The position numbers and the translations under genes are program-made. Under the pieces are notes generated by a model. That model was given only the letters and a program-made list of their open reading frames with translations, searched no databases and had not been told where the DNA came from. Positions 8,685 through 40,696 of a stretch of 40,696 bases of DNA are shown in pieces. Positions within the stretch are counted from its first letter, which is position 1. Every line of letters starts with the position of its first letter. The DNA lies in the IMG/VR virus record IMGVR_UViG_2541047870_000003; one strand, given 5' to 3'. The DNA is from a virus. Lineage: Duplodnaviria > Heunggongvirae > Uroviricota > Caudoviricetes.

Positions 8685-9107
8685 ATGAAAATCAAGCATG
8701 AGCACATCGAATCAGTGTTGTTTGCCCTAGCAGCCGAAAAAGGGCAGGCATGGGTAGCCAATGCAATTACTGAAGAATATCTGCGCCAGGGGGGCGGCGA
8801 ATTGCCCCTGGTTCCAGGCAAGGACTGGAACAATCAGCAGAATATCTATCACCGTTGGTTGAAAGGTGAAACGAAAACGCAAAGAGAAAAAATTCAGAAG
8901 CTGATCCCAGCAATTCTGGCAATCCTTCCGCGCGAGCTGCGTCACCGACTCTGCATCTTCGATACCCTGGAACGCCGTGCATTACTGGCGGCGCAGGAAG
9001 CGTTAAGTACGGCAATTGATGCGCATGATGATGCAGTCCAAGCCGTTTACCGGAAAGCGCATTTCAGCGGCGGCGGTTCTTCCGACGATTCTGTCATTGT
9101 TCATTAA
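8685..9107 (+). CDS. ydaT: YdaT-like protein (reported toxic when derepressed), 140 aa
   Basis: Second gene of rightward early operon; recalled as Rac YdaT. Confidence 0.75.
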   Translation: MKIKHEHIESVLFALAAEKGQAWVANAITEEYLRQGGGELPLVPGKDWNNQQNIYHRWLKGETKTQREKIQKLIPAILAILPRELRHRLCIFDTLERRALLAAQEALSTAIDAHDDAVQAVYRKAHFSGGGSSDDSVIVH

Positions 9108-9119
9108 GCAAAAGTTTCC

Positions 9120-9977
9120 ATGCTGTTTGTGCTTATTCTAAGCCACCGGGCAGCATCATACGGGGCAATTATGGCCGCATTACCATACATGCAACTGTAC
9201 ATAGCTGATTACCTGGCTGACACCATGCATTTGTCAGCAGAGGAGCATGGTGCGTATTTGTTGCTGATGTTCAATTACTGGCAAACAGGAAAGCCAATAC
9301 CTAAAAACAGGCTGGCAAAAATTGCCCGTCTGACTAACGAGCGATGGGCTGATGTTGAACCATCCTTGCAGGAGTTTTTTTGCGATAACGGCGAGGAATG
9401 GGTGCATCTTCGGATTGAGGAAGATCTGGCATCAGTCAGGGAAAAATTAACCAAAAAATCAGCCGCAGGAAAAGCATCTGTTCAGGCCAGAAGAAGCAGA
9501 AAGGAAGCAGATGTTCAAACAAAACAAGAGAGAAATTTAACAGGTGTTCAAACAGATGTTGAAGTGGTGTTTGAACATGATGTCAACACAAAGGCAACTA
9601 ATAAAGATACAGATAAAGATCTAAAAACAGATCCCCCCCTAAATCCCCCCCGGGGGAATCGAGGTGTCAAAAAGTTTGACCCTCTGGATATTGCTTTGCC
9701 GAACTGGATTTCTGTCTCGCTTTGGCGTGAGTGGGTTGAATTTCGCCAGGCATTGCGAAAACCGATTCGAACGGAGCAGGGCGCTAACGGGGCGATACGG
9801 GAGCTGGAAAAATTCCGCCAGCAGGGTTTTTCACCTGAGCAGGTGATTCGACACAGCATCGCCAATGAATACCAGGGCTTGTTCGCGCCGAAAGGTGTTC
9901 GACCTGAGACGTTACTCCGACAGGTTAACACCGTCTCGTTACCGGATAGTGCGATCCCGCCAGGCTTCAGGGGGTAA
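9120..9977 (+). CDS. ydaU: Replication initiation protein YdaU-like (O-like), 285 aa
   Basis: Position upstream of DnaC-like gene; recalled as Rac YdaU. Confidence 0.75.
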   Translation: MLFVLILSHRAASYGAIMAALPYMQLYIADYLADTMHLSAEEHGAYLLLMFNYWQTGKPIPKNRLAKIARLTNERWADVEPSLQEFFCDNGEEWVHLRIEEDLASVREKLTKKSAAGKASVQARRSRKEADVQTKQERNLTGVQTDVEVVFEHDVNTKATNKDTDKDLKTDPPLNPPRGNRGVKKFDPLDIALPNWISVSLWREWVEFRQALRKPIRTEQGANGAIRELEKFRQQGFSPEQVIRHSIANEYQGLFAPKGVRPETLLRQVNTVSLPDSAIPPGFRG

Positions 9978-9983
9978 CTGACC

Positions 9984-10730
9984 ATGAAAAATATTGCGAC
10001 AGGCGATGTTCTTGAACGTATCCGCAGACTGGCCCCGTCACATGTAACCGCGCCATTCAAGACGGTAGCGGAGTGGCGCGAGTGGCAACTTTCCGAAGGC
10101 CAGAAACGTTGTGAGGAGATCAATCGTCAGAATCGTCAGTTGCGGGTGGAAAAAATTCTGAATCGCTCTGGCATCCAGCCATTGCACCGCAAATGCTCGT
10201 TTTCGAATTACCAGGTGCAGAACGAAGGGCAGCGATACGCGTTGAGTCAGGCGAAATCCATCGCTGATGAACTGATGACCGGGTGTACAAATTTTGCGTT
10301 CAGCGGAAAACCTGGTACCGGGAAGAACCACTTAGCGGCAGCTATCGGGAATCGCCTGCTGAAAGACGGTCAGACAGTGATTGTGGTTACCGTGGCTGAT
10401 GTTATGAGTGCCCTGCACGCCAGCTATGACGATGGGCAGTCAGGCGAAAAATTTTTGCGGGAACTGTGCGAAGTGGATCTGCTGGTTCTTGATGAAATTG
10501 GCATTCAGCGCGAGACGAAAAACGAGCAGGTGGTACTGCACCAGATTGTTGATCGCCGGACAGCGTCGATGCGCAGCGTGGGGATGCTGACAAACCTGAA
10601 CTATGAGGCCATGAAAACATTGCTCGGCGAGCGGATTATGGATCGCATGACCATGAACGGCGGGCGATGGGTGAATTTTAACTGGGAGAGCTGGCGTCCG
10701 AATGTCGTCCAGCCAGGAATTGCGAAGTAA
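9984..10730 (+). CDS. ydaV: DnaC/IstB-like AAA+ helicase loader YdaV-like, 248 aa
   Basis: Walker [16 protein letters not shown] and Walker B LLVLDEIG visible in translation. Confidence 0.85.
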
Positions 10731-10752
10731 TTTTTACCGGGAGAAAAATTTA

Positions 10753-11514
10753 ATGGAGACTGTTTTTGACGCACTGAAAGCAATGGGAAAAGCCACATCC
10801 ATAGAACTTGCTGCGCGACTTGATATCAGTCGTGAAGAAGTGCTGAACGAACTATGGGAACTGAAAAAGGCTGGTTTTGTTGATAAAAGCGCGTACACCT
10901 GGCGTGTGGCTGATAACAACGTTCAGCAGGAACAGCCAGCGCAGGCAGAACTGCCGGAAGAAATCACCACAGCAACAGTAGCGAAAATCTCAGAGTGCGA
11001 TTTAACCGCGACGATTGAACAACGAGGACCACAAACGGCTGATGAGCTGGCTACATTGTTTGGTACCACATCACGCAAAGTGGCTTCAACGCTGGCAATG
11101 GCAATCAGCAAAGGTCGTCTGATTCGCGTAAATCAGGGCGGTAAATTTCGTTACTGCATACCGGGCGATAATTTACCAGCAGAGCCGAAAGCAGCATCGG
11201 TAGCGGAAACTGATGGTAAGGCCTTTCCTCAGACCGCAGGTGTTGCGTTACCAGTACAGGAGGCTGCAACACAGGAAGATATTAAAACAGAAACTGTGGC
11301 GGACATTGTGCAGTCGCTGCCATCGTTTACTGAAACGCGAGCGGATGACCTGGTTTTACCATCACTGCATATGGCAAACCGCGAACTGCGTCGGGCGAAA
11401 AATCATGTCCAGAAGTGGGAGCGTGTCTGCGCCGCGCTGCGTGAGTTGAACAAGCACAGGGATATTGTACGACAGATTACTGATTCTTCCCGCCATGTTG
11501 CATCGGAAAAGTGA
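10753..11514 (+). CDS. Hypothetical protein (YdaW-like), start at [13 protein letters not shown]
   Basis: In-frame ATG with upstream purine-rich stretch inside track ORF 10702-11514; N-terminal HTH-like segment; no function assignable. Confidence 0.5.
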
Positions 11515-11529
11515 TTGCCGGAGGCACCT

Positions 11530-11952
11530 ATGGCAAAAGTATTTACACCAGAAGAGCGAGAAAAAATTAAAGGACAGGTTGTTGAACTCGTACGCCAGAG
11601 TGGGCGTGAGACGTTACGGCAACTGGAAGTCAAGACAGGTGCGACAAGATATCTGATGAGCGTTCTCGCAAGAGAGCTGGTTGCCAGCGGCGATGTATGC
11701 AACTCTGGTTACGGGTTATTCCCGTCTGAACAGGCGCGTAAGGACTGGCAAAATGCCCGTAAAAAGCTCTCAAGGGCAAAGCTGAAGAAACCATCTGCGG
11801 TTGATCCGGACCTTATCTGGTCATTACCTGACGGAGAAATACGTCGCTACGACAGGCGTCAGAACATAATCTGTCGCGAGTGCCGGAAGAGTGAAGTTAT
11901 GCAGCGTGTACTGGCGTTTTATCGGGGAAACTTTCAAGAGGTGCTGTTGTGA
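11530..11952 (+). CDS. Hypothetical protein, 140 aa from MAKVFTPEEREKIKG
   Basis: GGAGG 6 nt upstream of ATG 11530; C-terminal CxxC (CRECRKSE). Confidence 0.45.
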   Translation: MAKVFTPEEREKIKGQVVELVRQSGRETLRQLEVKTGATRYLMSVLARELVASGDVCNSGYGLFPSEQARKDWQNARKKLSRAKLKKPSAVDPDLIWSLPDGEIRRYDRRQNIICRECRKSEVMQRVLAFYRGNFQEVLL

Positions 11953-12112
11953 GCCAAATTAATAATCGGAACTTGGTGAAGTGAAAGAGAAAACATAATC
12001 CAAATCTGAATAATTAAATTCAGCACTGTGAATAAAATAGAGTCCTTAACCGGAGGAATTCCTGCACTCTCAAATCATCAGGAGGCCGCCCGAAAAGGCG
12101 GTGGAGATAATA

Positions 12113-12631
12113 ATGGAAATAACTAAAGAACGATTATTGGAAATAGCAAGTCTTAGTGATGGGGCATTAAGTGATGGGAGAATTATTTCTCCTGATGCTT
12201 ATGAATCAGTTACAAGTATAGAAATAATAACGATGGCTAGGATGCTTCTTGCGCGCTTCAAAAAAGAATATAAAAAACAGGTAGATAGCAATGCTAATAT
12301 ATATGATATTTTGGACGGTTGGGGAGCCTGGGCTGTAGCTGAAAATAGTTCTATTGATTGGCAGGAAATAGCTGATAAATATAAAAATGTTGTTCCTCAT
12401 GGTAAAAAATCACGTCGTCAGTGCAGCAATGATGAAGGGGGTATAATTGATACCTGCATGCTGAGGCTTAAACAATATAGGATAGATGACTATGAGTTAA
12501 TTATCGCTCATTTTGTTATGGGAGTTTCATTGCGTTGTTTAGCTAAGATAAACGAATGTTCAGATGGTAAAATAAGGAAAAAAATGCAAATGGCAATGGG
12601 ATTTATTGCAGGTTGTATCTATTACCGTTGA
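12113..12631 (+). CDS. Q82/QuuD-type antitermination protein Q homologue with about 60-aa N-terminal extension, in accessory island
   Basis: C-terminal half shares the pattern I recall from DLP12 QuuD (GAWA, SRxQC, DD, CMxRLK, CSDGxIxK, GFIxG). Start 12113 chosen for GGAG spacing; track ORF starts at GTG 12101. Memory-based. Confidence 0.55.
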   Translation: MEITKERLLEIASLSDGALSDGRIISPDAYESVTSIEIITMARMLLARFKKEYKKQVDSNANIYDILDGWGAWAVAENSSIDWQEIADKYKNVVPHGKKSRRQCSNDEGGIIDTCMLRLKQYRIDDYELIIAHFVMGVSLRCLAKINECSDGKIRKKMQMAMGFIAGCIYYR

Positions 12632-12636
12632 TTTTT

Positions 12637-12659
12637 TAAGGCGAGTTTCTCTCGCCTTA
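12637..12659. other. Perfect 9-bp stem-loop (TAAGGCGAG/CTCGCCTTA) filling the convergent intergenic gap
   Basis: Seen directly; T-run precedes and A-run follows on the plus strand, so not a canonical intrinsic terminator in either direction. Confidence 0.5.
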
Positions 12660-12661
12660 AA

Positions 12662-14095
12662 TTAACTACAGTAACTATTGATTAAGTGAGAACTGAGCCA
12701 AGAGGTAATTGCATTCGTAGCATGTTCATCAAGCATTGAGAATCCTAATATGATCATTATAAATGAAATCAGCAAAGTCAGAATCACAACGAATGTGGCT
12801 ATAATCTGATAAGCTTTGTATGCCTCTCTTAATGGTGTGACTGCAAGATTCTCATAGTCAGTATCATCAAGAAAACCATATAGTTTATCTCTCCAGACTA
12901 GCCTAGTATTATCAAGTATCTTAAAGTAATTTTTATTTATGAAGAGAGTTGTAACCTGAGATATAAAAATATATATAGATAACGCGAAGAACATATATGG
13001 GAATATGTTATTGGTTATATTAATCTTTGATGCGTCTAGCGCATATTTTATTGCAAATAGACTTATAACCAGAGCCAGATCTTTCCAAAGAGCGGATGTG
13101 ATGTCTTTAGACTGACTTATTATTTTTTGCGTGTCTTCAGCTAAGGTTTTCCTTAGATCGGACAGAGATTTAATAGTCTCTCTGCTGCTAGCGCGAATGT
13201 GGGCCTTATATAGTAATTTTGCTGACTCAAAGGCCATAGGGAGTTTTTTTGGTAAACCCTCACAGAAGGATACATACTCTGGCCATTCTCGTGCTAACTC
13301 ACTTGTGAAGAAAGTATGTTTGAGTTCAATCTCATTGCCCTCAATAAAGATCCAGTTTATTACAGTTTGTAAAACTGAATAGTCGGAAAGCAGAATGTCT
13401 GGATCTCCATAAATTAATTTTTTTGGTGGCTTTCCAGTTAAACAAATTGATTTCTTTTCATCTGCTAATAATTCATTAACGAGAGTGCGACAAAGCATAT
13501 TGCAGGAAACTTGTAACCATTTTTTGAAAAAGTTGTCCTCTTCCTCAGGCATTTTATAAAGTACCCAAGGAGCTATATCAGATGCAGGCATGAACTCACT
13601 AGAATAGAATTTAACGTAGCTCTGTAAATTGATTGAAGTTCGTACGGTTTCATTAGGTTCAATTTTTTCTGGAGCATGGTTCCATGGCTCAACAGAATAT
13701 CCTAAAGTTTCAAATCCATGTTTCAAACCGAGAATATTCACTTTATTGGTTATTGATACTAAATCATCATTGTGTAGAAAAACATTCCACCCTTCGAGCG
13801 TAAAAATATACCTGTTATTTTCGAATGCAATGCATTTTAGCGTAATGTTAAGTTTATCACCTTCACTGCATGACGATGGTTTTACTTCATCATTACAGTC
13901 ATCTTTAACAGTAATTTCAATCCAATTTGGTACGTTTTCGTAAACGTACTGCCAAAGAATGAGTGCATCTTTGTCCATTTTGGCAGAAATTAGAACGCGC
14001 GCAGAATCATTTTTTATTGATTCTGATGCCAAAAATTCAGGGTCTTTCCTTGACGCCTGTATAGACTCATCGATTTTTTGAAGTATCGATGTCAT
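12662..14095 (-). CDS. Hypothetical protein, about 477 aa: about 350-aa soluble N-terminal domain plus three predicted C-terminal transmembrane helices; candidate membrane effector
   Basis: Hydrophobic segments LALVISLFAIKYALDAS, IFPYMFFALSIYIFISQVTTLFI, IIATFVVILTLLISFIMIILGF; GAGGA 9 nt upstream of ATG at 14095; 29-nt overlap with upstream gene. Track ORF extends to 14143. Confidence 0.6.
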   Translation of the reverse strand: MTSILQKIDESIQASRKDPEFLASESIKNDSARVLISAKMDKDALILWQYVYENVPNWIEITVKDDCNDEVKPSSCSEGDKLNITLKCIAFENNRYIFTLEGWNVFLHNDDLVSITNKVNILGLKHGFETLGYSVEPWNHAPEKIEPNETVRTSINLQSYVKFYSSEFMPASDIAPWVLYKMPEEEDNFFKKWLQVSCNMLCRTLVNELLADEKKSICLTGKPPKKLIYGDPDILLSDYSVLQTVINWIFIEGNEIELKHTFFTSELAREWPEYVSFCEGLPKKLPMAFESAKLLYKAHIRASSRETIKSLSDLRKTLAEDTQKIISQSKDITSALWKDLALVISLFAIKYALDASKINITNNIFPYMFFALSIYIFISQVTTLFINKNYFKILDNTRLVWRDKLYGFLDDTDYENLAVTPLREAYKAYQIIATFVVILTLLISFIMIILGFSMLDEHATNAITSWLSSHLINSYCS

Positions 14096-15125
14096 CAGTA
14101 ATAATCCTCGCAGTAGTAACAATAATTTGTTTTCGCCCATCATCTAAGTTTCTTATTTCTGGACGGTCATCTTCATTATAACTAATTACTACACTTTCTG
14201 CAGTTTCAATTTTTCGTCTTGGTGGTTTATGAATGCCATCTGCTTTTATAGTAAAGGATTCGCCTTCAATACCAGCATTTTTTGTTTGAGTTTTGAATGT
14301 GTTGAGAATTGGTGATTTTTCATCTAACGGCCCAAAAATGCTGGTCAATAACGGAGAAGCATCTTCAGGATTATATTCGAAATCAGCTCTGCTTAAAACT
14401 TCATATATTTTATTTACGCCGCTTTTTTGAATTGACTCTGGCAATAATTCTTTATGCCTTTTGAAGGTTATTTTCAGCGCATCAATAAGCTTATTGCAAA
14501 GTTCAATTTCAGAGTTGACTCTTTTAACATTTAAGAAGCCTTTAAAATATCCTGAAATATTGGTTCTTTTACTCCTGTCTTTTACAATAACTTTCCCGCC
14601 TTTCCCACTTGGATCAAGTTGAATTAACGCTATTTTTTGCATTGCCTCAGCTTTTTTTACGAAAGTTTCATGAAATCTTTCTAAAGTAGGCATTTGTTCT
14701 TCAGATAACTCTTCGTCAAGAACATAACGAACCACATCTTCATTATCGTATTTTATAATTGCATAGAATTTTTCCTTATCTGAAACCAATTCAAATAAGA
14801 AAAAGCATCCCATACTCGTGTTACCGCTAGAATGGTGTGACTGAAAATCACTGGCCAGTAGCTTCGATTGTTCTGTAAAACAATTAGCTTCAGCATCTGC
14901 TTTATCTCTAATGATACGCAGGATTCTTTCGGTATTTGAATTCTCCAGAAAAGTGAAAAGATTTCCTTTCAGTGAAGATTTGATACGTTCAAGAAAAAAA
15001 TCCACATGCTGAACTGGTTTTATTTCTTTGAGAAGTGTCGGTGCTTCAAGATTCTTACCTACAACGTGAAAGATCATTTTATTAATGACTAAATTTTGTA
15101 CGTCTTGTTCAGAAAGGAAACTCAT
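14067..15125 (-). CDS. Hypothetical soluble protein, 352 aa; weak resemblance to NA37/YejK-type nucleoid-associated proteins; candidate sensor
   Basis: GGAG 5 nt upstream of ATG at 15125; N-terminal INKMIFHVVGK and central GCFFLFELV...FYAIIKY segments resemble YejK as I recall it. Low-certainty, memory-based. Confidence 0.55.
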   Translation of the reverse strand: MSFLSEQDVQNLVINKMIFHVVGKNLEAPTLLKEIKPVQHVDFFLERIKSSLKGNLFTFLENSNTERILRIIRDKADAEANCFTEQSKLLASDFQSHHSSGNTSMGCFFLFELVSDKEKFYAIIKYDNEDVVRYVLDEELSEEQMPTLERFHETFVKKAEAMQKIALIQLDPSGKGGKVIVKDRSKRTNISGYFKGFLNVKRVNSEIELCNKLIDALKITFKRHKELLPESIQKSGVNKIYEVLSRADFEYNPEDASPLLTSIFGPLDEKSPILNTFKTQTKNAGIEGESFTIKADGIHKPPRRKIETAESVVISYNEDDRPEIRNLDDGRKQIIVTTARIITDDIDTSKNR

Positions 15126-15166
15126 CCTGACTCCATAATCAAGCAGATTAGAACTATGACTAGTCT

Positions 15167-15195
15167 AGTATATGCATCTTTTGGTGCGTACGCAA
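15167..15195 (-). promoter_or_regulatory. Candidate sigma70 promoter for the two-gene operon: -35 TTGCGT, 17-bp spacer, -10 TATACT, with 8-bp palindrome GCGTACGC over the -35
   Basis: Seen on the minus strand about 35 nt upstream of the 15125 start codon; hexamers judged by eye. Confidence 0.35.
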
Positions 15196-15454
15196 AAGTT
15201 CTTAAACTCAAAATGTTATCGCGGATAGATCTTTGTAGAGTCAGTGATTGGCGCAGGTAGGTGGTAACAGCAGACAAATAGCTGCGGATACTTGAGGCTA
15301 TCTGCCTCGGGCATGAACATCAAAGGCAGATAGAGAAAAGCCCCAGTTAACATTACGCATCCGGCAAGACGCTTAACATTAATCTGAGGCCAATTTCATG
15401 CTTTGCACATGTAGGTTAGCCTCTTACGTGCCGAAAGGCAAGGAGAAGCAGGCT

Positions 15455-15610
15455 ATGAAGCAGCAAAAGGCGATGTTAGTCGCCCTGATCGTCATCTGTT
15501 TAACCGTTATAGTGACGGTACTGGTAACGAGGAAAGACCTCTGCGAGGTACGAATCCGAACCGACCAGACGGAGGTCGCTGTCTTCACAGCTTACGAACT
15601 TGGGGAGTAA
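15455..15610 (+). CDS. hok: Hok-family type I toxin, 51 aa (MKQQKAMLVALIVICLTVIVTVLVTRKDLCEVRIRTDQTEVAVFTAYELGE)
   Basis: Near-identical to Hok/RelF-family sequences as I recall them; single TM helix; in-frame upstream extension (from 15398) resembles a mok-like leader; 10-bp inverted repeat at 15298-15341 upstream. Confidence 0.8.
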   Translation: MKQQKAMLVALIVICLTVIVTVLVTRKDLCEVRIRTDQTEVAVFTAYELGE

Positions 15611-16072
15611 GAGGACCGGCGGGGAGAAATCCCCGCAACCTCTGATGTATTATGCATCCTCAACGCAGCCACAGTTAACCTGATTGGCGGGTTTATTTCA
15701 TCTGTAAATATATTTATAAAAATAATGCCCACGCACAGCATAAAACAAAAAGTATTACAGATAAAAAAGGAACGTAATGTGCAGATTTGTTGTTTTCCAT
15801 ATTTACTCACCTTAATATGATTAACCCTGATAGGGTTGTTATTTCAGCGGTTTTCAAATGAGATATTATGGTGATCTGGCAGATTTGCATAACATTAAAA
15901 TTTAATTTGTTTAACCGCTTTTAATAATAAGCGTTGTTTGTATCCCAGCAATCTGTTGTTTGGTTTTTATTCCATTAAGGTGGGGCTTTACACTGGAGCC
16001 AGTTTATTTATACTTCATACGTCAGCCTGAACAACTGGCATCTGCTGCGCTGCGCCATCGAGAGATTAAGAA

Positions 16073-16672
16073 ATGGCGCATATACAACTGGTCAAACAAA
16101 CCTCTTCCGGATTACTTCTCCCGGCGACGCCGGAGAGTTGTGATTTTCTGCATCAAATCAAAATAGGCGAGTGGATACACGCAGACTTTAAGCGTGTGCG
16201 TAACTACGCATTCCACAAGCGTTTTTTCAAACTCCTGCAACTGGGATTCGATTACTGGACTCCGGTCGGTGGGGCGATCACGCCACGCGAACGAGAACTG
16301 CTGTCTGGTTTCGTTGATTACCTGTGCGAATCAGTTGGTCGGGAACACACGCCAGCCCTGAGTGAGGCCGCAGAGCAATATCTGAATACAGTTGCGACAC
16401 GCAGAACCCGGGATACGGCATTGCTAAAGTCGTTTGAGGCTTTTCGCGAGTGGGTAACCATTCAGGCTGGATTTTACACCGAACATTTTTATCCGGACGG
16501 TAGCCATGGGCGTCGGGCGAAATCCATCGCTTTTGCGAATATGGATGAAACCGAGTTTCAGCAGGTTTATAAATCTGTTCTGAATGTGCTGTGGAACTGG
16601 ATTCTGTTCCGTAAATTTTCCTCTCCGGAACAAGTCGAAAATGTGGCCGCGCAGCTGCTGGAGTTTGCGTAA
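16073..16672 (+). CDS. DUF1367 family protein (DLP12 YbcN-like), nin-region gene, 199 aa
   Basis: Recalled similarity to YbcN; position upstream of YbcO-like gene and Q. Confidence 0.6.
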   Translation: MAHIQLVKQTSSGLLLPATPESCDFLHQIKIGEWIHADFKRVRNYAFHKRFFKLLQLGFDYWTPVGGAITPRERELLSGFVDYLCESVGREHTPALSEAAEQYLNTVATRRTRDTALLKSFEAFREWVTIQAGFYTEHFYPDGSHGRRAKSIAFANMDETEFQQVYKSVLNVLWNWILFRKFSSPEQVENVAAQLLEFA

Positions 16673-16962
16673 TGGTGGATTTACGTAAAGCGGCGCGGGG
16701 GCAGATGTGCGCCGTCAGAATTCCTGGCTACTGCAATCACGATCCGGAAACGTCTGTGCTGGCGCATTACCGACTGGCGGGAACGTGCGGAACAGCGACA
16801 AAACCACACGATATGCAGGCGGCGATTGCCTGTAGCTCATGCCACGATCTAATCGACGGGCGGGTAAAAACCAGCGATTACACCAAAGAAGAATTACGCC
16901 TGATGCATGCAGAAGGTGTTTTTCGCACACAAGAAATCTGGAGAAAGGAGGGATATTTGTGA
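16672..16962 (+). CDS. DUF1364 family protein (YbcO-like), 96 aa, Cys/His-rich
   Basis: CxxH/CxxC-type motifs (CSSCHDL, CNHD); ATGG start overlaps upstream stop; recalled similarity to YbcO. Confidence 0.65.
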   Translation: MVDLRKAARGQMCAVRIPGYCNHDPETSVLAHYRLAGTCGTATKPHDMQAAIACSSCHDLIDGRVKTSDYTKEELRLMHAEGVFRTQEIWRKEGYL

Positions 16963-17501
16963 TTTACCCAACGAATACAGGAAAAAGCGGAGAACACCTT
17001 CGTCTCGCCACGCTGGAAAGTGTCTGGATTCAGGGCAAACTGCGTATGTGGGGGCGCTGGTCGTATATTGGCGGTGGCAGGTCAGGAAATATGTTCAATC
17101 AGTTGTTGGCATCCAAAAAATTGACGAAAACAGCCATCAATGAAGCCCTGCGCAGAATGAAAAAAGCGGGAATAGAGAAAGCTGAGCTGGAAGCGTTTTT
17201 GCGAGAGATGATCAACGGCAAGCAAAAGAGCTGGCTGGCGCATTGTACTGATGCAGAGGCGTTATGTATTGATCGAGTCATAAGTGAGGTGCTGGCAGAG
17301 CATCCAGGATTGATTAGCGTCCTTCGGCAACGGTATGAGGGGCGGGGGATGACCAAACGCAAAATGGCTGAATTGCTAAATGATGCACACCCAGAGTGGT
17401 GTTTTAGCACATGCGAAAAGCGAATTGCTAATTGGTTGGCCGTTGCTGAGTATGCGCTATACATTCCCATGCGAGAATCATTCGCTCAAAAAACGGCTTG
17501 A
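16959..17501 (+). CDS. Putative late antiterminator Q (positional call), 180 aa from GTG
   Basis: GGAGGG 6 nt upstream of GTG 16959, overlapping upstream stop; last gene before the AT-rich late-promoter region, tRNAs and lysis cassette. Family not recognised with certainty. Confidence 0.5.
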   Translation: MIYPTNTGKSGEHLRLATLESVWIQGKLRMWGRWSYIGGGRSGNMFNQLLASKKLTKTAINEALRRMKKAGIEKAELEAFLREMINGKQKSWLAHCTDAEALCIDRVISEVLAEHPGLISVLRQRYEGRGMTKRKMAELLNDAHPEWCFSTCEKRIANWLAVAEYALYIPMRESFAQKTA

Positions 17502-17918: not shown

Positions 17919-17994
<76 letters not shown>

Positions 17995-17997
17995 TAT

Positions 17998-18072
<75 letters not shown>

Positions 18073-19993: not shown

Positions 19994-20130
19994 AATCTTA
20001 ACTACAATATGATTCATTTTGATGATTGTTTCATAAGGAACAGTGAAGTAAGATCTAAGAGGAGTTAAATTTTATACAGTATAATCATAATATTGCAGCA
20101 AGGTGGTTATAATTGAAAGAATATTTAGAT

Positions 20131-21588
20131 ATGAATACATCTCATGTAAGAGTTGTTACTCATATGTGTGGGTTCCTGGTTTGGCTCTATAGTCTTTCAA
20201 TGTTGCCACCAATGGTTGTAGCATTGTTTTATAAAGAAAAAAGCCTGTTCGTTTTCTTTATAACTTTCGTTATATTTTTTTGTATTGGTGGCGGAGCGTG
20301 GTATACAACTAAGAAATCTGGCATTCAATTACGTACCCGTGATGGGTTTATTATAATTGTAATGTTTTGGATTTTGTTTTCTGTTATTAGTGCATTCCCT
20401 TTATGGATTGACTCAGAACTTAATTTAACGTTCATTGATGCTCTGTTTGAAGGGGTTTCTGGAATAACAACAACAGGAGCAACTGTAATTGATGATGTTA
20501 GTTCATTACCTCGGGCATATTTGTACTATCGGTCACAGTTAAATTTTATAGGTGGTTTAGGAGTTATTGTTCTGGCGGTTGCTGTATTGCCATTATTGGG
20601 TATTGGTGGTGCAAAGCTTTATCAGTCAGAAATGCCGGGGCCATTTAAGGATGACAAACTCACTCCCCGCCTGGCCGATACGTCACGGACACTGTGGATA
20701 ACTTATTCTTTATTAGGTATTGCTTGTATTGTCTGTTATAGACTTGCAGGAATGCCTTTGTTTGATGCTATTTGTCACGGGATTTCCACAGTTTCGCTTG
20801 GTGGTTTCTCAACTCATAGCGAGAGTATCGGATATTTTAATAACTATTTGGTTGAGCTGGTGGCTGGTTCTTTTTCCCTGCTATCGGCTTTCAACTTCAC
20901 TCTTTGGTATATTGTTATTAGCAGGAAAACGATAAAACCTTTAATCAGAGATATTGAACTTCGTTTCTTTCTGTTAATAGCCTTAGGGGTGATCATTGTT
21001 ACCTCTTTCCAGGTCTGGCATATAGGTATGTATGACTTGCATGGAAGTTTTATTCATTCGTTTTTTCTTGCCAGCTCCATGCTCACTGATAATGGTTTAG
21101 CTACGCAGGATTATGCAAGTTGGCCCACGCACACGATAGTGTTTTTGCTGTTGTCAAGTTTCTTTGGGGGATGTATAGGTTCAACTTGTGGTGGAATTAA
21201 GTCACTTCGATTTCTTATACTTTTCAAACAAAGCAAACACGAGATAAATCAGCTTTCTCATCCCAGAGCGTTGTTGAGTGTAAATGTAGGAGGGAAGATA
21301 GTTACAGATCGTGTAATGAGGTCTGTATGGAGTTTCTTTTTTCTTTATACTCTCTTCACGGTGTTTTTTATACTGGTGTTAAATGGTATGGGATATGATT
21401 TTCTTACATCATTTGCAACAGTGGCTGCATGTATTAATAATATGGGATTAGGTTTTGGGGCTACTGCATCGTCATTCGGAGTGCTTAATGACATTGCAAA
21501 ATGTTTAATGTGCATAGCTATGATTCTTGGTCGCCTTGAAATTTATCCTGTTATTATATTGTTTTCAGGTTTTTTTTGGCGCTCCTAA
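20131..21588 (+). CDS. trkG: TrkG/TrkH-family K+ uptake membrane protein, 485 aa from MNTSHVRVV
   Basis: Polytopic membrane protein; recalled as Rac TrkG; sits in a region that looks AT-rich by eye. Track ORF starts at TTG 20113. Confidence 0.85.
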   Translation: MNTSHVRVVTHMCGFLVWLYSLSMLPPMVVALFYKEKSLFVFFITFVIFFCIGGGAWYTTKKSGIQLRTRDGFIIIVMFWILFSVISAFPLWIDSELNLTFIDALFEGVSGITTTGATVIDDVSSLPRAYLYYRSQLNFIGGLGVIVLAVAVLPLLGIGGAKLYQSEMPGPFKDDKLTPRLADTSRTLWITYSLLGIACIVCYRLAGMPLFDAICHGISTVSLGGFSTHSESIGYFNNYLVELVAGSFSLLSAFNFTLWYIVISRKTIKPLIRDIELRFFLLIALGVIIVTSFQVWHIGMYDLHGSFIHSFFLASSMLTDNGLATQDYASWPTHTIVFLLLSSFFGGCIGSTCGGIKSLRFLILFKQSKHEINQLSHPRALLSVNVGGKIVTDRVMRSVWSFFFLYTLFTVFFILVLNGMGYDFLTSFATVAACINNMGLGFGATASSFGVLNDIAKCLMCIAMILGRLEIYPVIILFSGFFWRS

Positions 21589-21725
21589 TATATGGCTGAT
21601 TTATAATTGTGAGTTTAATATTATGTTGACTCACTCATTGATCCAATACCTAACTTTACCAGCAATACCTCCGTCCCCAGTAGCACTGGCTGCTGGGGTG
21701 CGTTTTATTCATAAAGCAAGGCTGT

Positions 21726-22517
21726 ATGAGCGAGAAATTAAAGATAGTCTATCGCCCATTACAAGAATTGTCACCGTATGCGCACAACGCCAGGACGCAC
21801 AGCCCTGAGCAGGTGGCACAACTGGTAGAAAGTATTAAGCAATTCGGCTGGACTAATCCGGTGCTGATTGACGAAAAGGGCGAAATTATTGCGGGTCACG
21901 GTCGTGTTATGGCGGCTGAAATGCTCAAAATGGATTCTGTTCCGGTCATTGTTCTGTCTGGCCTGACGGATGAGCAGAAAAAGGCGTACCGCCTGGCAGA
22001 TAATCGCCTGCCGATGAATGCTGGCTGGGATGAAGATCTGTTGCGGATGGAGCTGTCGGACCTAATCAATGCTGATTTTGATGTCTCCCTGACAGGCTTC
22101 ATCCCGACAGAAATTGATGAACTGTTGACGGATGTTTTGCCCGGTACAGGAAATGAGGAGGAGCCGTATACGACGAAAATTGATACGCCTGTTTATGAGC
22201 CGTCGGGCGGTAAACCGGATATCAGTGAACTGTACGACGATACGAAAACTCAGGAGCTGATCAGCCGGATACGTTCGGCGTCCCTTGAGCCTGATATTGA
22301 GAAATTCCTCCTGTGTGCGGCAGAACGTCACACGGTGTTTAATTTCAGCAGAATTGCGGACTATTACGCTCACGCCCCCGCTGAAATTCAGTGTTTTTTC
22401 GAGGAGTCGGCGCTGGTGATCATTGATTATCAGCAGGCTATTGAAAATGGATTTGTCCGGATGACGCAGCGCATGGTGGAGATCATGCATGGTGGTGAGG
22501 AGGAGGAATATGCGTGA
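21726..22517 (+). CDS. ParB-like nuclease domain protein, 263 aa
   Basis: N-terminal ParB/Srx-like pattern (ELSPYAHNARTH...NPVLIDEKGEIIAGHGRVMAAEMLKMDSVPVIV) recognised from memory. Confidence 0.65.
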   Translation: MSEKLKIVYRPLQELSPYAHNARTHSPEQVAQLVESIKQFGWTNPVLIDEKGEIIAGHGRVMAAEMLKMDSVPVIVLSGLTDEQKKAYRLADNRLPMNAGWDEDLLRMELSDLINADFDVSLTGFIPTEIDELLTDVLPGTGNEEEPYTTKIDTPVYEPSGGKPDISELYDDTKTQELISRIRSASLEPDIEKFLLCAAERHTVFNFSRIADYYAHAPAEIQCFFEESALVIIDYQQAIENGFVRMTQRMVEIMHGGEEEEYA

Positions 22518-37927: not shown

Positions 37928-38625
37928 TGCAGGACATACAACAGGAAACGCTGAATGAATGCATTCGTGCGGAGCAGTCGGCCAGCGTGGTGCTCTGGGA
38001 AATCGACCTGACCGAGGTAGGCGGGGATCGCTACTTTTTCTGCAATGAGCAGAACGAGAAAGGAGAGTCTGTCACCTGGCAGAGTCGGCAGTATCAGGCC
38101 TATCCCATTCAGGGGAGTGGATTTGAGATGAACGGCAAAGGTGCCAGTGCAAGGCCAACGCTGAAAGTCTCTAATCTGCACGGCATGGTCACCGGGATGG
38201 CGGAAGACCTGCAGAGTCTGGTCGGCGGAACGGTGGTCAGGCGTAAGGTTTACGCCCGTTTTCTGGATGCGGTGAACTTCGTCAACGGAAACAGTGACGC
38301 CGATCCGGAGCAGGAGGTGATCAGCCGCTGGCGTATTGAGCAGTGCAGCGAACTGAGCGCGGTCAGTGCCTCCTTTGTACTGTCCACGCCGACGGAAACG
38401 GACGGCGCTGTTTTTCCGGGGCGCATCATGCTTGCTAATACCTGCACCTGGACCTATCGCGGTGATGAGTGCGGTTATCACGGTCCGGCGGTCGCGGATG
38501 AATATGACCAGCCGACATCCGAAATCACGAAGGATAAATGCAGCAAATGCCTGAGTGGCTGTAAGTTCCGCAATAATGTCGGCAACTTTGGCGGCTTCCT
38601 TTCCATTAACAAACTTTCGCAGTAA
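37927..38625 (+). CDS. L: Minor tail protein L (lambda-like), 232 aa
   Basis: Near-identical to lambda L as recalled (MQDI.QETLNEC...CSKCLSGCKFRNNVGNFGGFLSINKLSQ); same length. Confidence 0.9.
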   Translation: MQDIQQETLNECIRAEQSASVVLWEIDLTEVGGDRYFFCNEQNEKGESVTWQSRQYQAYPIQGSGFEMNGKGASARPTLKVSNLHGMVTGMAEDLQSLVGGTVVRRKVYARFLDAVNFVNGNSDADPEQEVISRWRIEQCSELSAVSASFVLSTPTETDGAVFPGRIMLANTCTWTYRGDECGYHGPAVADEYDQPTSEITKDKCSKCLSGCKFRNNVGNFGGFLSINKLSQ

Positions 38626-38630
38626 ATCCC

Positions 38631-39374
38631 ATGACAGAGACAGAATCAGCGATTCTGGCGCACGCCCGGCGATGTGCGCCAGCGGAGTCGTGCGGCTTCG
38701 TGGTGAGAACGCCGGAAGGGGAAAGATATTTTCCCTGCGTGAATATCTCCGGTGAGCCGGAGGCGTATTTCCGGATGGCTCCGGAGGACTGGCTGCGGGC
38801 AGAAATGCAGGGTGAGATTGTGGCGCTGGTCCACAGTCACCCCGGTGCTCTGCCCTGGCTGAGTGAGGCCGACCGGCGGCTGCAGGTGCAGAGTGATTTG
38901 CCGTGGTGGCTGGTCTGCCGGGGGGCGATTCACAAGTTCCGCTGTGTGCCACATCTTACCGGGCGGCGCTTTGAGCACGGGGTGACGGACTGTTACACGC
39001 TGTTCCGGGATGCTTACCATCTGGCGGGAATTGAGATGCCTGATTTTCATCGTGAGGATGACTGGTGGCGTCACGGTCAGAATCTCTATCTGGATAATAT
39101 GGAGGCAACGGGGCTGTATCAGGTGCCGTTGTCAGCGGCGCAGCCGGGCGATGTGCTGCTGTGCTGTTTTGGTTCATCGGTGCCGAATCATGCCGCTATT
39201 TACTGTGGTGACGGCGAGCTGCTGCACCATATTCCTGAACAACTGAGCAAACGAGAGAGGTATACCGACAAATGGCAGCGACGCACACACTCCCTCTGGC
39301 GTCACCGGGCATGGCACGTATCTGCCTTTACGGGGATTTGCAACGATTTGGCCGCCGCATCGACCTTCGTGTGA
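38631..39374 (+). CDS. K: Tail tip assembly protein K (JAB/MPN plus NlpC/P60-like), lambda-like
   Basis: HSHP JAMM-like motif and Cys/His peptidase-like C-terminal region; ORF end overlaps next gene by about 100 nt, so true stop/start boundaries are uncertain. Confidence 0.8.
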   Translation: MTETESAILAHARRCAPAESCGFVVRTPEGERYFPCVNISGEPEAYFRMAPEDWLRAEMQGEIVALVHSHPGALPWLSEADRRLQVQSDLPWWLVCRGAIHKFRCVPHLTGRRFEHGVTDCYTLFRDAYHLAGIEMPDFHREDDWWRHGQNLYLDNMEATGLYQVPLSAAQPGDVLLCCFGSSVPNHAAIYCGDGELLHHIPEQLSKRERYTDKWQRRTHSLWRHRAWHVSAFTGICNDLAAASTFV

Positions 39375-39919
39375 AAACGGGGGCCGAAGCCATCCGGGCG
39401 CTGGCCATGCAGATCCCGGCGTTTCGTCAGAAACTGAGCGATGGCTGGTATCAGGTGCGCATTGCCGGGCGTGATGCAGGCGAAAACGAATTATCAGCCC
39501 GTCTTAATGAGCCGCTGAAAAATGGTGCCGTGATCCACATCGTTCCGCGTCTTGCGGGAGCAAAAAGTGGCGGTGTGTTTCAGGCGGTGCTGGGTGCGGC
39601 GCTGATTGCGGTGGCGTGGTGGAACCCTGCAGGCTGGCTGGGAGCTGCGGCTTTATCGGGCATGTATGCTGCGGGGGCCAGTATGATCCTTGGCGGTGTG
39701 GCGCAGATGCTGGCACCGAAAGCCAGTACCGCAACAACGACCAGCACGGATAACGGTAAGCAGAACACGTATTTCTCGTCACTGGATAACATGGTTGCCC
39801 AGGGCAATGTTATGCCTGTTCTGTACGGTGAAATGCGCGTGGGATCACGTGTGGTTTCTCAGGAGATCAGCACGGCAGACGAAGGGGACGGTGGTCAGGT
39901 TGTGGTGATTGGTCGCTGA
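39272..39919 (+). CDS. I: Tail tip assembly protein I (lambda-like)
   Basis: Recalled similarity to lambda I; start codon uncertain (several in-frame Met). Confidence 0.75.
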   Translation: MAATHTLPLASPGMARICLYGDLQRFGRRIDLRVKTGAEAIRALAMQIPAFRQKLSDGWYQVRIAGRDAGENELSARLNEPLKNGAVIHIVPRLAGAKSGGVFQAVLGAALIAVAWWNPAGWLGAAALSGMYAAGASMILGGVAQMLAPKASTATTTSTDNGKQNTYFSSLDNMVAQGNVMPVLYGEMRVGSRVVSQEISTADEGDGGQVVVIGR

Positions 39920-39938
39920 GGCAAAATGTTTTATGTGA

Positions 39939-39965
39939 AACCGCCTCCGGGCGGTTTTGTCGTTT
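39939..39965 (+). terminator. Terminator-like hairpin (AACCGCC-tccg-GGCGGTT followed by TTGTCGTTT) upstream of J
   Basis: Perfect 7-bp stem plus T-rich tail. Confidence 0.4.
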
Positions 39966-39979
39966 ATGGAGCGTGAGGA

Positions 39980-40696
39980 ATGGGTAAAGGCAGCAGTAAG
40001 GGGCATACCCCGCGCGAAGCGAAGGACAACCTGAAGTCCACGCAGCTGCTGAGTGTGATCGATGCCATCAGCGAAGGGCCGGTTGAAGGTCCGGTGGATG
40101 GATTAAAAAGCGTGCTGCTGAACAGTACGCCGGTGCTGGACACTGAGGGGAATACCAACATCGCCGGTGTCACGGTGGTGTTCCGTGCCGGTGAGCAGGA
40201 GCAGACACCGCCGGAGGGGTTTGAATCCTCCGGCTCCGAGACGGTGCTGGGTACGGAAGTGAAATATGACACGCCGATCACCCGCACCATTACGTCTGCA
40301 AACATCGACCGTCTGCGCTTTACCTTCGGTGTGCAGGCACTGGTGGAAACCACCTCAAAGGGGGACCGGAATCCGTCGGAAGTTCGCCTGCTGGTTCAGA
40401 TACAGCGTAATGGTGGCTGGGTGACGGAAAAAGACATCACCATTAAGGGCAAAACCACCTCGCAGTATCTGGCCTCGGTGGTGGTGGATAACCTGCCGCC
40501 GCGCCCGTTTAATATCCGGATGCGCAGGATGACGCCGGACAGCACCACAGACCAGCTGCAGAACAAAACGCTCTGGTCGTCATACACCGAAATCATCGAT
40601 GTGAAACAGTGCTACCCGAACACGGCACTGGTCGGCGTGCAGGTGGACTCGGAGCAGTTCGGCAGCCAGCAGGTGAGCCGTAATTATCATCTTCGC
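39980..40696 (+). CDS. J: Tail tip/host specificity protein J, N-terminal 239 codons (truncated by window end)
   Basis: Hand translation MGKGSSKGHTPREAKDNLKSTQLLSVIDAISEGP... matches lambda J N-terminus as recalled; open to the window end, so absent from the complete-ORF track. Confidence 0.85.
   Translation, partial: MGKGSSKGHTPREAKDNLKSTQLLSVIDAISEGPVEGPVDGLKSVLLNSTPVLDTEGNTNIAGVTVVFRAGEQEQTPPEGFESSGSETVLGTEVKYDTPITRTITSANIDRLRFTFGVQALVETTSKGDRNPSEVRLLVQIQRNGGWVTEKDITIKGKTTSQYLASVVVDNLPPRPFNIRMRRMTPDSTTDQLQNKTLWSSYTEIIDVKQCYPNTALVGVQVDSEQFGSQQVSRNYHLR

Follow-up and report, generated by a model that had tools for sequence, protein, structure and literature searches.

Positions 11953-16072 of the virus record IMGVR_UViG_2541047870_000003, whose full length of 40,696 nucleotides (nt) is referred to here as the window, lie between the replication block and the nin-like block of a lambdoid prophage, assigned by its gene content to the Rac type of Escherichia coli. 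The explanation that we prefer, and regard as probable, is that this interval is a cargo slot with borders suited to homologous recombination, and that it holds a foreign AT-rich block of 3.3 kb, consisting of a Q-family paralogue and a two-gene operon with the architecture of a type II PANGU system, in which a nucleoid-associated protein (NAP) is paired with a membrane-associated partner. Both parts of this finding belong to known kinds, namely the accessory slot of lambdoid prophages and the NAP-based abortive-infection system, the latter being a recently described type of system and not a new one. Three other explanations are weighed below, each of which is less likely than this one.

A cargo slot between DUF977 and hok/sok

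The original prediction, which a model made from the sequence letters alone, described a compositionally distinct island of about 4 kb at this position, and calculation bears out a shift relative to the flanks. The G+C fraction (GC) is 0.366 over 11953-16072, as against 0.501 in the left flank (8685-11952) and 0.500 in the right flank (16073-17501), and the sliding GC profile drops from approximately 0.50 to 0.33-0.37 across 11.9-15.2 kb. GC at third codon positions (GC3) is 0.25-0.31 in the three genes of the core and 0.44-0.61 in the flanking genes. The extent of the island has to be narrowed, however: low GC holds for the core at 11953-15276 (GC 0.352), but the hok/sok module that follows (15277-15694) has a GC of 0.502 and is not AT-rich, and it is only in the spacer at 15695-16072 (GC 0.341) that AT-richness returns. 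The segment of 3,324 bp with the lowest GC in the entire 40.7 kb begins at 11911 (window mean 0.46, standard deviation 0.032).

Breakpoints of homology were placed by pairwise BLASTN of the window against eight prophages (L003-L010). They are sharp and recurrent, falling at 11923-11962 on the left and 15247-15277 on the right, with secondary junctions at 15694/15713 and 16050. The limits of the AT-rich core match these breakpoints, and the core is the variable cargo. The slot, its borders and the foreign composition of its content are in this sense direct observations. Low GC might also reflect a functional or phage-intrinsic constraint instead of foreign origin, as other stretches of the window are AT-rich too (at about 0.5-2, 5.3-7.2 and 20-21.7 kb); we consider this very improbable, given that the AT-rich limits coincide with the homology breakpoints, that the content differs between prophages that are otherwise about 92-96% identical, and that cassettes of unrelated sequence in the same slot are AT-rich too.

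Among complete E. coli genomes, of which 5,426 were surveyed, 29 contain the whole 4.1 kb and 4,807 the hok part, while sequenced phages match 11953-16072 at the hok part only. The variety of cargo was sampled by a search with the flanks included, taking matches evenly down the ranking, and this spread sample of genomes contains more than 15 different cargo sets between DUF977 and hokD. Among them are IteA/IteS, AbiH, an ATP-dependent nuclease with Dcm, KilA-N, sce7726, a SMEK protein with a methyltransferase, an AAA ATPase, DUF4209, QueH, DUF4406/DUF7167/Ea22-like genes, an adhesin and insertion sequence (IS) elements. IteA/IteS, AbiH and the SMEK-domain protein (found in L009) are named defence genes; the SMEK domain family was validated as DS-27 in DefensePredictor (PMC13092281), to which the L009 protein is linked by domain family alone. 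A near-empty slot, with DUF977 and hok spaced within about 0.9 kb, occurs in only 37 genomes, nearly all of them of the BL21 lineage. Related prophages thus carry other cargo between the same flanks, and the proposal of a horizontally acquired moron or defence hotspot is supported on three counts: the GC shift is real, the content is not conserved, and the alternative cargo includes named defence genes. On these comparisons we take the DUF977-hok/sok interval to be a recombinational hotspot, or swappable cargo slot, of Rac/Qin-type prophages.

Lambdoid prophages often encode accessory genes behind their replication genes (PMC13043305), and the type of hotspot is therefore already known in general. 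No description of the DUF977-hok slot, or of the version with a Q-family paralogue as its left component, was found in the searchable literature. Like the prophage defence and moron hotspots of P2/P4 (Rousset et al. 2022) and the lambdoid post-replication slot (PMC13043305), the interval has conserved flanks, atypical composition and variable, mostly defence-related cargo; it differs from them in its particular borders, which in Rac/Qin-type prophages are DUF977 (left) and hok/sok (right), and in that one version carries a Q-family paralogue. The relBE-hokD locus of the K-12 prophage Qin represents the same position, with flxA, ydfV, relB and relE as the cargo directly upstream of hokD, but there the replication genes and DUF977 have been deleted. 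Because the conserved borders permit homologous recombination between lambdoid prophages and phages, accessory cassettes would be swapped in and out of the slot. Its exact borders (the 3' end of DUF977 and the 5' end of hok/sok) allow it to be mined across Enterobacteria for new defence systems.

The left anchor is the conserved DUF977 gene (11515-11952, plus strand; PF06163, E 1e-29), the last gene of the replication-associated block. Next to it is a conserved leader (11953-12112, plus strand) upstream of the first plus-strand gene of the slot. About 110 nt of this leader, at approximately 11993-12102, are 80-88% identical in the majority of the 2,840 matching E. coli genomes, regardless of cargo, and the leader is found at every locus with the long Q-like gene described below, as well as in L005 and L006. 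The leader includes a hairpin (GCCGCC-CGAAAA-GGCGGT, 12084-12101) placed just before the ribosome-binding site of the Q-like gene; the leader may act as an anchor for recombination, or its hairpin may be translational or nut-like.

The right anchor is a hok/sok/mok type I toxin-antitoxin module (15277-15694, plus strand; PF01848, E 3e-21; GC 0.50). It comprises hok (15455-15610, plus strand), the overlapping mok frame (15398-15610) and sok (15286-15460; Rfam RF01794, 99.4 bits against a gathering threshold of 59). Copies about 90% identical are present in the 4,807 genomes with a hok match and in lambdoid phages. Beyond it lies the non-coding, AT-rich leader of the DUF1367/YbcO/DUF1133 module (15695-16072, plus strand), which is conserved with L003 and L005 from 15713 onwards and has a promoter-like site at 15987-16014 (score 10/12). 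The original prediction had listed four cargo items, of which the Q-like gene, the two-gene operon and hok do exist. Nevertheless, hok is not cargo: with breakpoints at 15277 and 15694, hok/sok belongs with the 15695-16072 leader to the conserved frame, that is, to the phage backbone. The fourth item, structured non-coding DNA at 15695-16072, has to be withdrawn, as the leader has no excess of RNA structure compared with shuffled sequences (fold z -0.17) and a permissive Rfam scan returned sok as its sole match, with none in 15695-16072. IS421 is inserted in this hok-DUF1367 leader in about half of the 29 carriers (KKa014 among them; L036, 4052-5164) and also in a variant with an unrelated cassette (L013, 8374-9486), so that the leader looks like a preferred IS target.

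A two-gene operon resembling type II PANGU

The larger part of the cargo is a two-gene operon on the minus strand. Its first gene (14067-15125) encodes a YejK/NA37-like NAP of 352 amino acids (aa), the candidate sensor, in which PF04245 (E 9e-13) covers residues 18-335 and which RefSeq names 'nucleoid-associated protein'. The protein is 80% identical over its full length to its homologue in prophage L015, and the gene is therefore intact in the window. The second gene (12662-14095) encodes the candidate effector, a protein of 477 aa without a Pfam family, for which no informative match was found in Pfam, NCBIfam, PHROG, PADLOC or a PDB sequence search. Its start at 14095, which agrees with RefSeq and with the homologues, gives a 29-nt overlap with the 3' end of the NAP gene. 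The protein has an isoelectric point (pI) of 5.3; residues 1-340 are soluble, with a pI of 5.1 and a net charge of -11, and hydropathy places hydrophobic segments at 364-387 and 425-459. An AlphaFold2 model built with 45 homologues (predicted local distance difference test score, pLDDT, 87.7) has an alpha/beta N-terminal domain, very long helices (364 to 476) and C-terminal helical hairpins, an architecture like that of Pag2B. With respect to orientation, the operon does run against the rightward early operon as predicted, but the Q-like gene and hok are co-directional with it.

Architecture and conservation of the operon are likewise observed directly. Homologues of the effector form 78 clusters, in Enterobacterales, Methylomonas, Methylobacterium and sphingomonads, and an NA37 gene lies directly upstream in 6/6 contexts examined (L015-L020 and L041). 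A short overlap of the two genes, as in the window, also occurs in L015, L017, L019 and L020, and the pair of NA37 protein and partner has been kept with the same overlap in Enterobacterales, Methylomonas and Sphingomonas. The contexts of effector homologues include prophage, a chromosomal islet by an ars operon, a MazE-like/PIN toxin-antitoxin pair and ubiquitin-like/ThiF genes.

The PANGU system was described in a 2026 preprint (10.64898/2026.04.06.716658). In that description phage nucleases degrade the host DNA, upon which a YejK-like NAP is freed from the nucleoid, and binds and activates an effector. Type II PANGU consists of the NAP Pag2A and of Pag2B, which has an acidic DNA-mimic N-terminal domain and a C-terminal transmembrane domain; an E. 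coli system of this type gave protection against T4 that depended on both genes (10.64898/2026.04.06.716658). The window operon has the corresponding features: a YejK/NA37-like NAP encoded by the first gene of a bicistronic operon, and a partner with an acidic soluble N-terminal part and a predicted C-terminal transmembrane region. As with type II PANGU, it occurs in E. coli on mobile DNA, and the pair is spread across Proteobacteria. It differs in being prophage-borne and linked to a Q-family gene, in the modest acidity of the N-terminal part, and in being known here from its genes alone. By architecture, and by comparison with the preprint's description only, we judge it probable that the operon works like a type II PANGU abortive-infection system. 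Rac is among the most widespread E. coli prophage types, and the present case places a PANGU-like system on a Rac-type prophage.

In the lysogen, a leftward promoter of the operon's own would most likely drive its expression, antisense to the early operon. The presumed promoter region (15126-15276, minus strand) is the right end of the variable cargo, with homology to other prophages resuming at 15247-15277. By analogy with the preprint's model, the NAP would reside on the host nucleoid until an infecting phage degrades the host DNA and frees it; the free NAP would then bind the acidic N-terminal domain of the partner, whose C-terminal transmembrane helices would damage the membrane, aborting the infection.

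A second YejK-domain system offers a further comparison. DS-1 (the NAP WP_000355468.1 with WP_000150292.1) is a two-gene system validated in E. coli by DefensePredictor (PMC13092281). It shares with the window operon a YejK-domain protein and a partner, of about 400 aa, with C-terminal hydrophobic helices, but its NAP carries a zinc-ribbon-like extension at the N-terminus, and there is no overlap between its genes. The accessions of the window proteins are not among the entries listed in the DefensePredictor supplements.

Several observations weigh against a PANGU-like function. The N-terminal part of the effector is mildly acidic at most (net -11 over 340 aa), in contrast to the acidic DNA-mimic (DMK) domain of type II PANGU, and homology of the window pair to the tested Pag2A and Pag2B is unproven. 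Searched against DS-1, the pair gives no BLASTP match at 1e-3. The 477-aa protein was compared with the DS-1 partner and with the 406-aa partner from the second NAP system of the slot (see below), and remote homology was rejected in both cases (hhalign probability 0.3% and <1%, respectively). No PADLOC (2023) model corresponds to the operon, and 15126-15276 contains no convincing sigma-70 promoter match for it. In E. coli strain EC1722-1, one of the 29 carriers, the NAP gene (L001, 8115-9173) is frameshifted into two open reading frames (ORFs) of 723 and 321 nt, and because the gene is split in this way at least one carrier has an inactivated operon. Finally, going by one preprint (10.64898/2026.09.05.749240), H-NS may silence such AT-rich DNA in E. 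coli. Given the type II architecture, and no similarity in sequence to either DS-1 or the slot's second NAP system, the operon is classed here as acting in the manner of type II PANGU, its membership being unproven.

Alternatively, the operon could be a prophage-borne chromatin or regulatory module, in which the NdpA/YejK-like protein modulates or silences prophage or host genes, in the manner of NdpA2 for the PAPI-1 element and Pnd for the plasmid pCAR1. Mobile elements with regulatory NdpA-like NAPs are indeed known (PMC8565334, PMC6606824), the NA37 domain covers the whole NAP, and no defence model matches the operon. Nevertheless, this appears unlikely: all homologue contexts examined have the NAP gene in translational coupling with a membrane-protein gene, which would be superfluous for a pure chromatin protein; the slot that holds the operon contains named defence genes elsewhere; and operons of like layout, with a NAP and an effector, have been shown to defend against phage. 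A PANGU-like defence function accordingly remains our favoured reading of the operon.

The stop codons of the convergent effector and Q-like genes are separated by a GC-rich hairpin (GGCGAG-TTTCT-CTCGCC, 12641-12657), located at the operon's 3' end. The local segment folds at -19.7 kcal/mol, the stem is kept with a different loop in L015, and the hairpin is probably a terminator at the convergence point. Its candidacy as a conserved part of the slot was rejected, as it varies with the cassette. A PR'-like promoter with a tR'-like terminator, antisense inside the effector gene (promoter-like 12855-12884, hairpin 13030-13044), was also considered, and was dropped because the hairpin at 13030-13044 is not conserved in L015. 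An IS1 deletion in strain E01 has left the effector gene region with its first 472 nt and nothing beyond.

A long Q-family paralogue with reversed cassettes

The remaining gene of the core (12113-12631, plus strand), also AT-rich, encodes a long Q-family paralogue (PF06530, E 1e-33; phrog_79, with the N-terminus matching phrog_3323). Its start is most likely at 12113, giving the 172 aa of the RefSeq entry; within the 176-aa ORF, PF06530 spans residues 66-173. The protein is composed of a 61-aa N-terminal extension and a Q21-type antiterminator domain (residues 62-169), has a weak match to the Q21 structures 6JNX and 6P18, and is 77-80% identical at the amino acid level to paralogues that occupy the same slot with different cargo. 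The Q domain is 60% identical to the 116-aa Q encoded after RusA in prophage L015 and 53% identical to the Q of the lambdoid viral contig L041. The Q21-family late antiterminators (PF06530; PDB 6P18, 6JNX) are thus its relatives, with the C-terminal 108 aa being 53-60% identical to short late-position Q proteins, but the window protein differs in its N-terminal extension, in the early-region position of its gene, and in that convergent genes come after it instead of a late promoter and late genes. The Q-like gene is not the late-gene Q of the window prophage: it lies between the replication genes and hok, with a convergent gene 30 bp on, and the canonical Q position is taken by a DUF1133 gene.

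Loci with the long Q-like gene occur repeatedly in E. coli and Salmonella, and their order is constant: DUF977 (with or without small genes), long Q-like gene, reversed cassette, hok. Among these loci, DNA homology runs from DUF977 through the leader into the Q-like gene and ends 13-40 nt before its stop codon. The Q domain of the long paralogues is under purifying selection, with omega of 0.11-0.35 at a synonymous divergence (dS) of 0.5-1.3. Divergence is far lower in the N-terminal extension and leader (dS 0.03-0.27), and this difference from the Q domain suggests that the 5' part of the unit is being homogenised by recombination. The Q-like gene, which had been predicted to be an independent cargo item, is on this evidence better described as a semi-conserved component at the left of one slot version.

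Behind the long Q-like gene there are six AT-rich cassettes that are unrelated to one another, all of them convergent with that gene. The first is the window operon itself (NA37 protein of 352 aa plus 477 aa); the others encode an NA37 protein of 380 aa plus 406 aa, a DUF6731 protein plus 159 aa, three proteins of 363, 142 and 197 aa, a single protein of 332 aa, and two proteins of 311 and 199 aa. The last of these, from a Salmonella prophage (L033, 5045-6599), corresponds to the PADLOC candidate system PDC-M53 (A and B proteins), and the other five match no model of PADLOC 2.0.0 (2023). The five unmatched cassettes, together with the PDC-M53 match, are ready candidates for testing. The second cassette is a NAP system unrelated to that of the window (NA37 protein of 380 aa with a partner of 406-410 aa), found in E. 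coli and Salmonella prophages (L014, 5538-7893; L026-L029; L034-L035); its partner has a weak similarity to the DS-1 partner (30% over 116 aa).

Linkage of the NAP operon to a Q gene extends beyond the slot. Window positions 12297-15145, comprising the Q domain and the operon, form a single colinear block of 68.7% nucleotide identity with L015/L016, where a true short Q (116 aa, after RusA) is followed, within the late region, by the same convergent operon. A third lambdoid contig, L041, has the same linkage with an effector identity of 42%, so that three diverged lineages pair the NAP operon with a convergent PF06530 Q gene. In L015 itself, a reverse-transcriptase gene (RVT_1) and an 8xMP gene are found beside hok (10143-13434), and the hok-adjacent slot of that prophage may therefore be occupied by a different defence candidate.

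The colinear block and the linkage in L041 could be read to mean that part of the late region of another lambdoid phage, Q plus downstream cargo, was pasted into the early region through illegitimate or homeologous recombination, leaving an inert scar, in which the Q-like gene and perhaps the operon are decaying passengers. Many of the 29 carriers do have IS insertions nearby, and one has the frameshifted NAP gene; on the other hand, all three core ORFs of the window (Q-like, NAP and effector) are full length relative to their homologues, the omega values of the Q domain point to purifying selection, and six different intact cassettes accompany the long Q-like gene across E. coli and Salmonella. 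We consider an inert scar quite improbable.

The linkage of a Q-family gene to reversed cassettes hints at a regulatory or recombinational role of Q paralogues. Specifically, the long paralogue might be a working part of a cassette-exchange site, bracketing reversed abortive-infection cassettes together with hok/sok; we offer this as a speculative extension with a low probability. Through the similarity of the paralogue to true late Q genes, it could serve as a homology anchor by which cassettes shuttle between the post-replication slot and the post-Q slot; alternatively, the Q-like protein could allow early transcription to read through the reversed cassette, or could silence the cassette, upon prophage induction. 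Reversed cassettes anchored by a Q paralogue appear to be undescribed, and no regulatory or recombinational role for Q paralogues with such cassettes was found in the searchable literature.

The prophage around the slot

The identity of the prophage is drawn from annotated loci in two strains. At a locus 99.9% identical to the window, EC1722-1 has annotated kilR, sieB, ydaT, a ydaU-family gene, ydaV, DUF1627 and DUF977 on one side of the slot, and DUF1367, DUF1364/YbcO, DUF1133, tRNA-Thr, tRNA-Gly, holin, lysozyme and trkG on the other, and recE and racC are annotated upstream in the matching locus of a second strain; the window is therefore assigned to a Rac-type lambdoid prophage of E. coli. 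The nin-like module begins with the DUF1367 gene (16073-16672, plus strand; PF07105, E 2e-96) and includes the DUF1133 gene (16959-17501), the prophage's own gene in the Q position, upstream of the tRNAs and the holin gene.

A pair of tRNA genes, tRNA-Thr(TGT) and tRNA-Gly(TCC), is located at 17919-18072 on the plus strand, between DUF1133 and the holin gene, which is the classical post-Q cargo position. The AT-rich stretch at approximately 20000-21750 (GC 0.32-0.40) corresponds to trkG, downstream of the lysis genes. Another AT-rich stretch, near the left end of the window, contains a full-length Rfam match (225 bits) to the small RNA RalA at 1557-1735 on the plus strand; in Rac, RalA is the antitoxin to RalR, the two forming a type I toxin-antitoxin system. 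Over the last part of the window (38000-40696), GC climbs to 0.56-0.60, well above the rest of the prophage.

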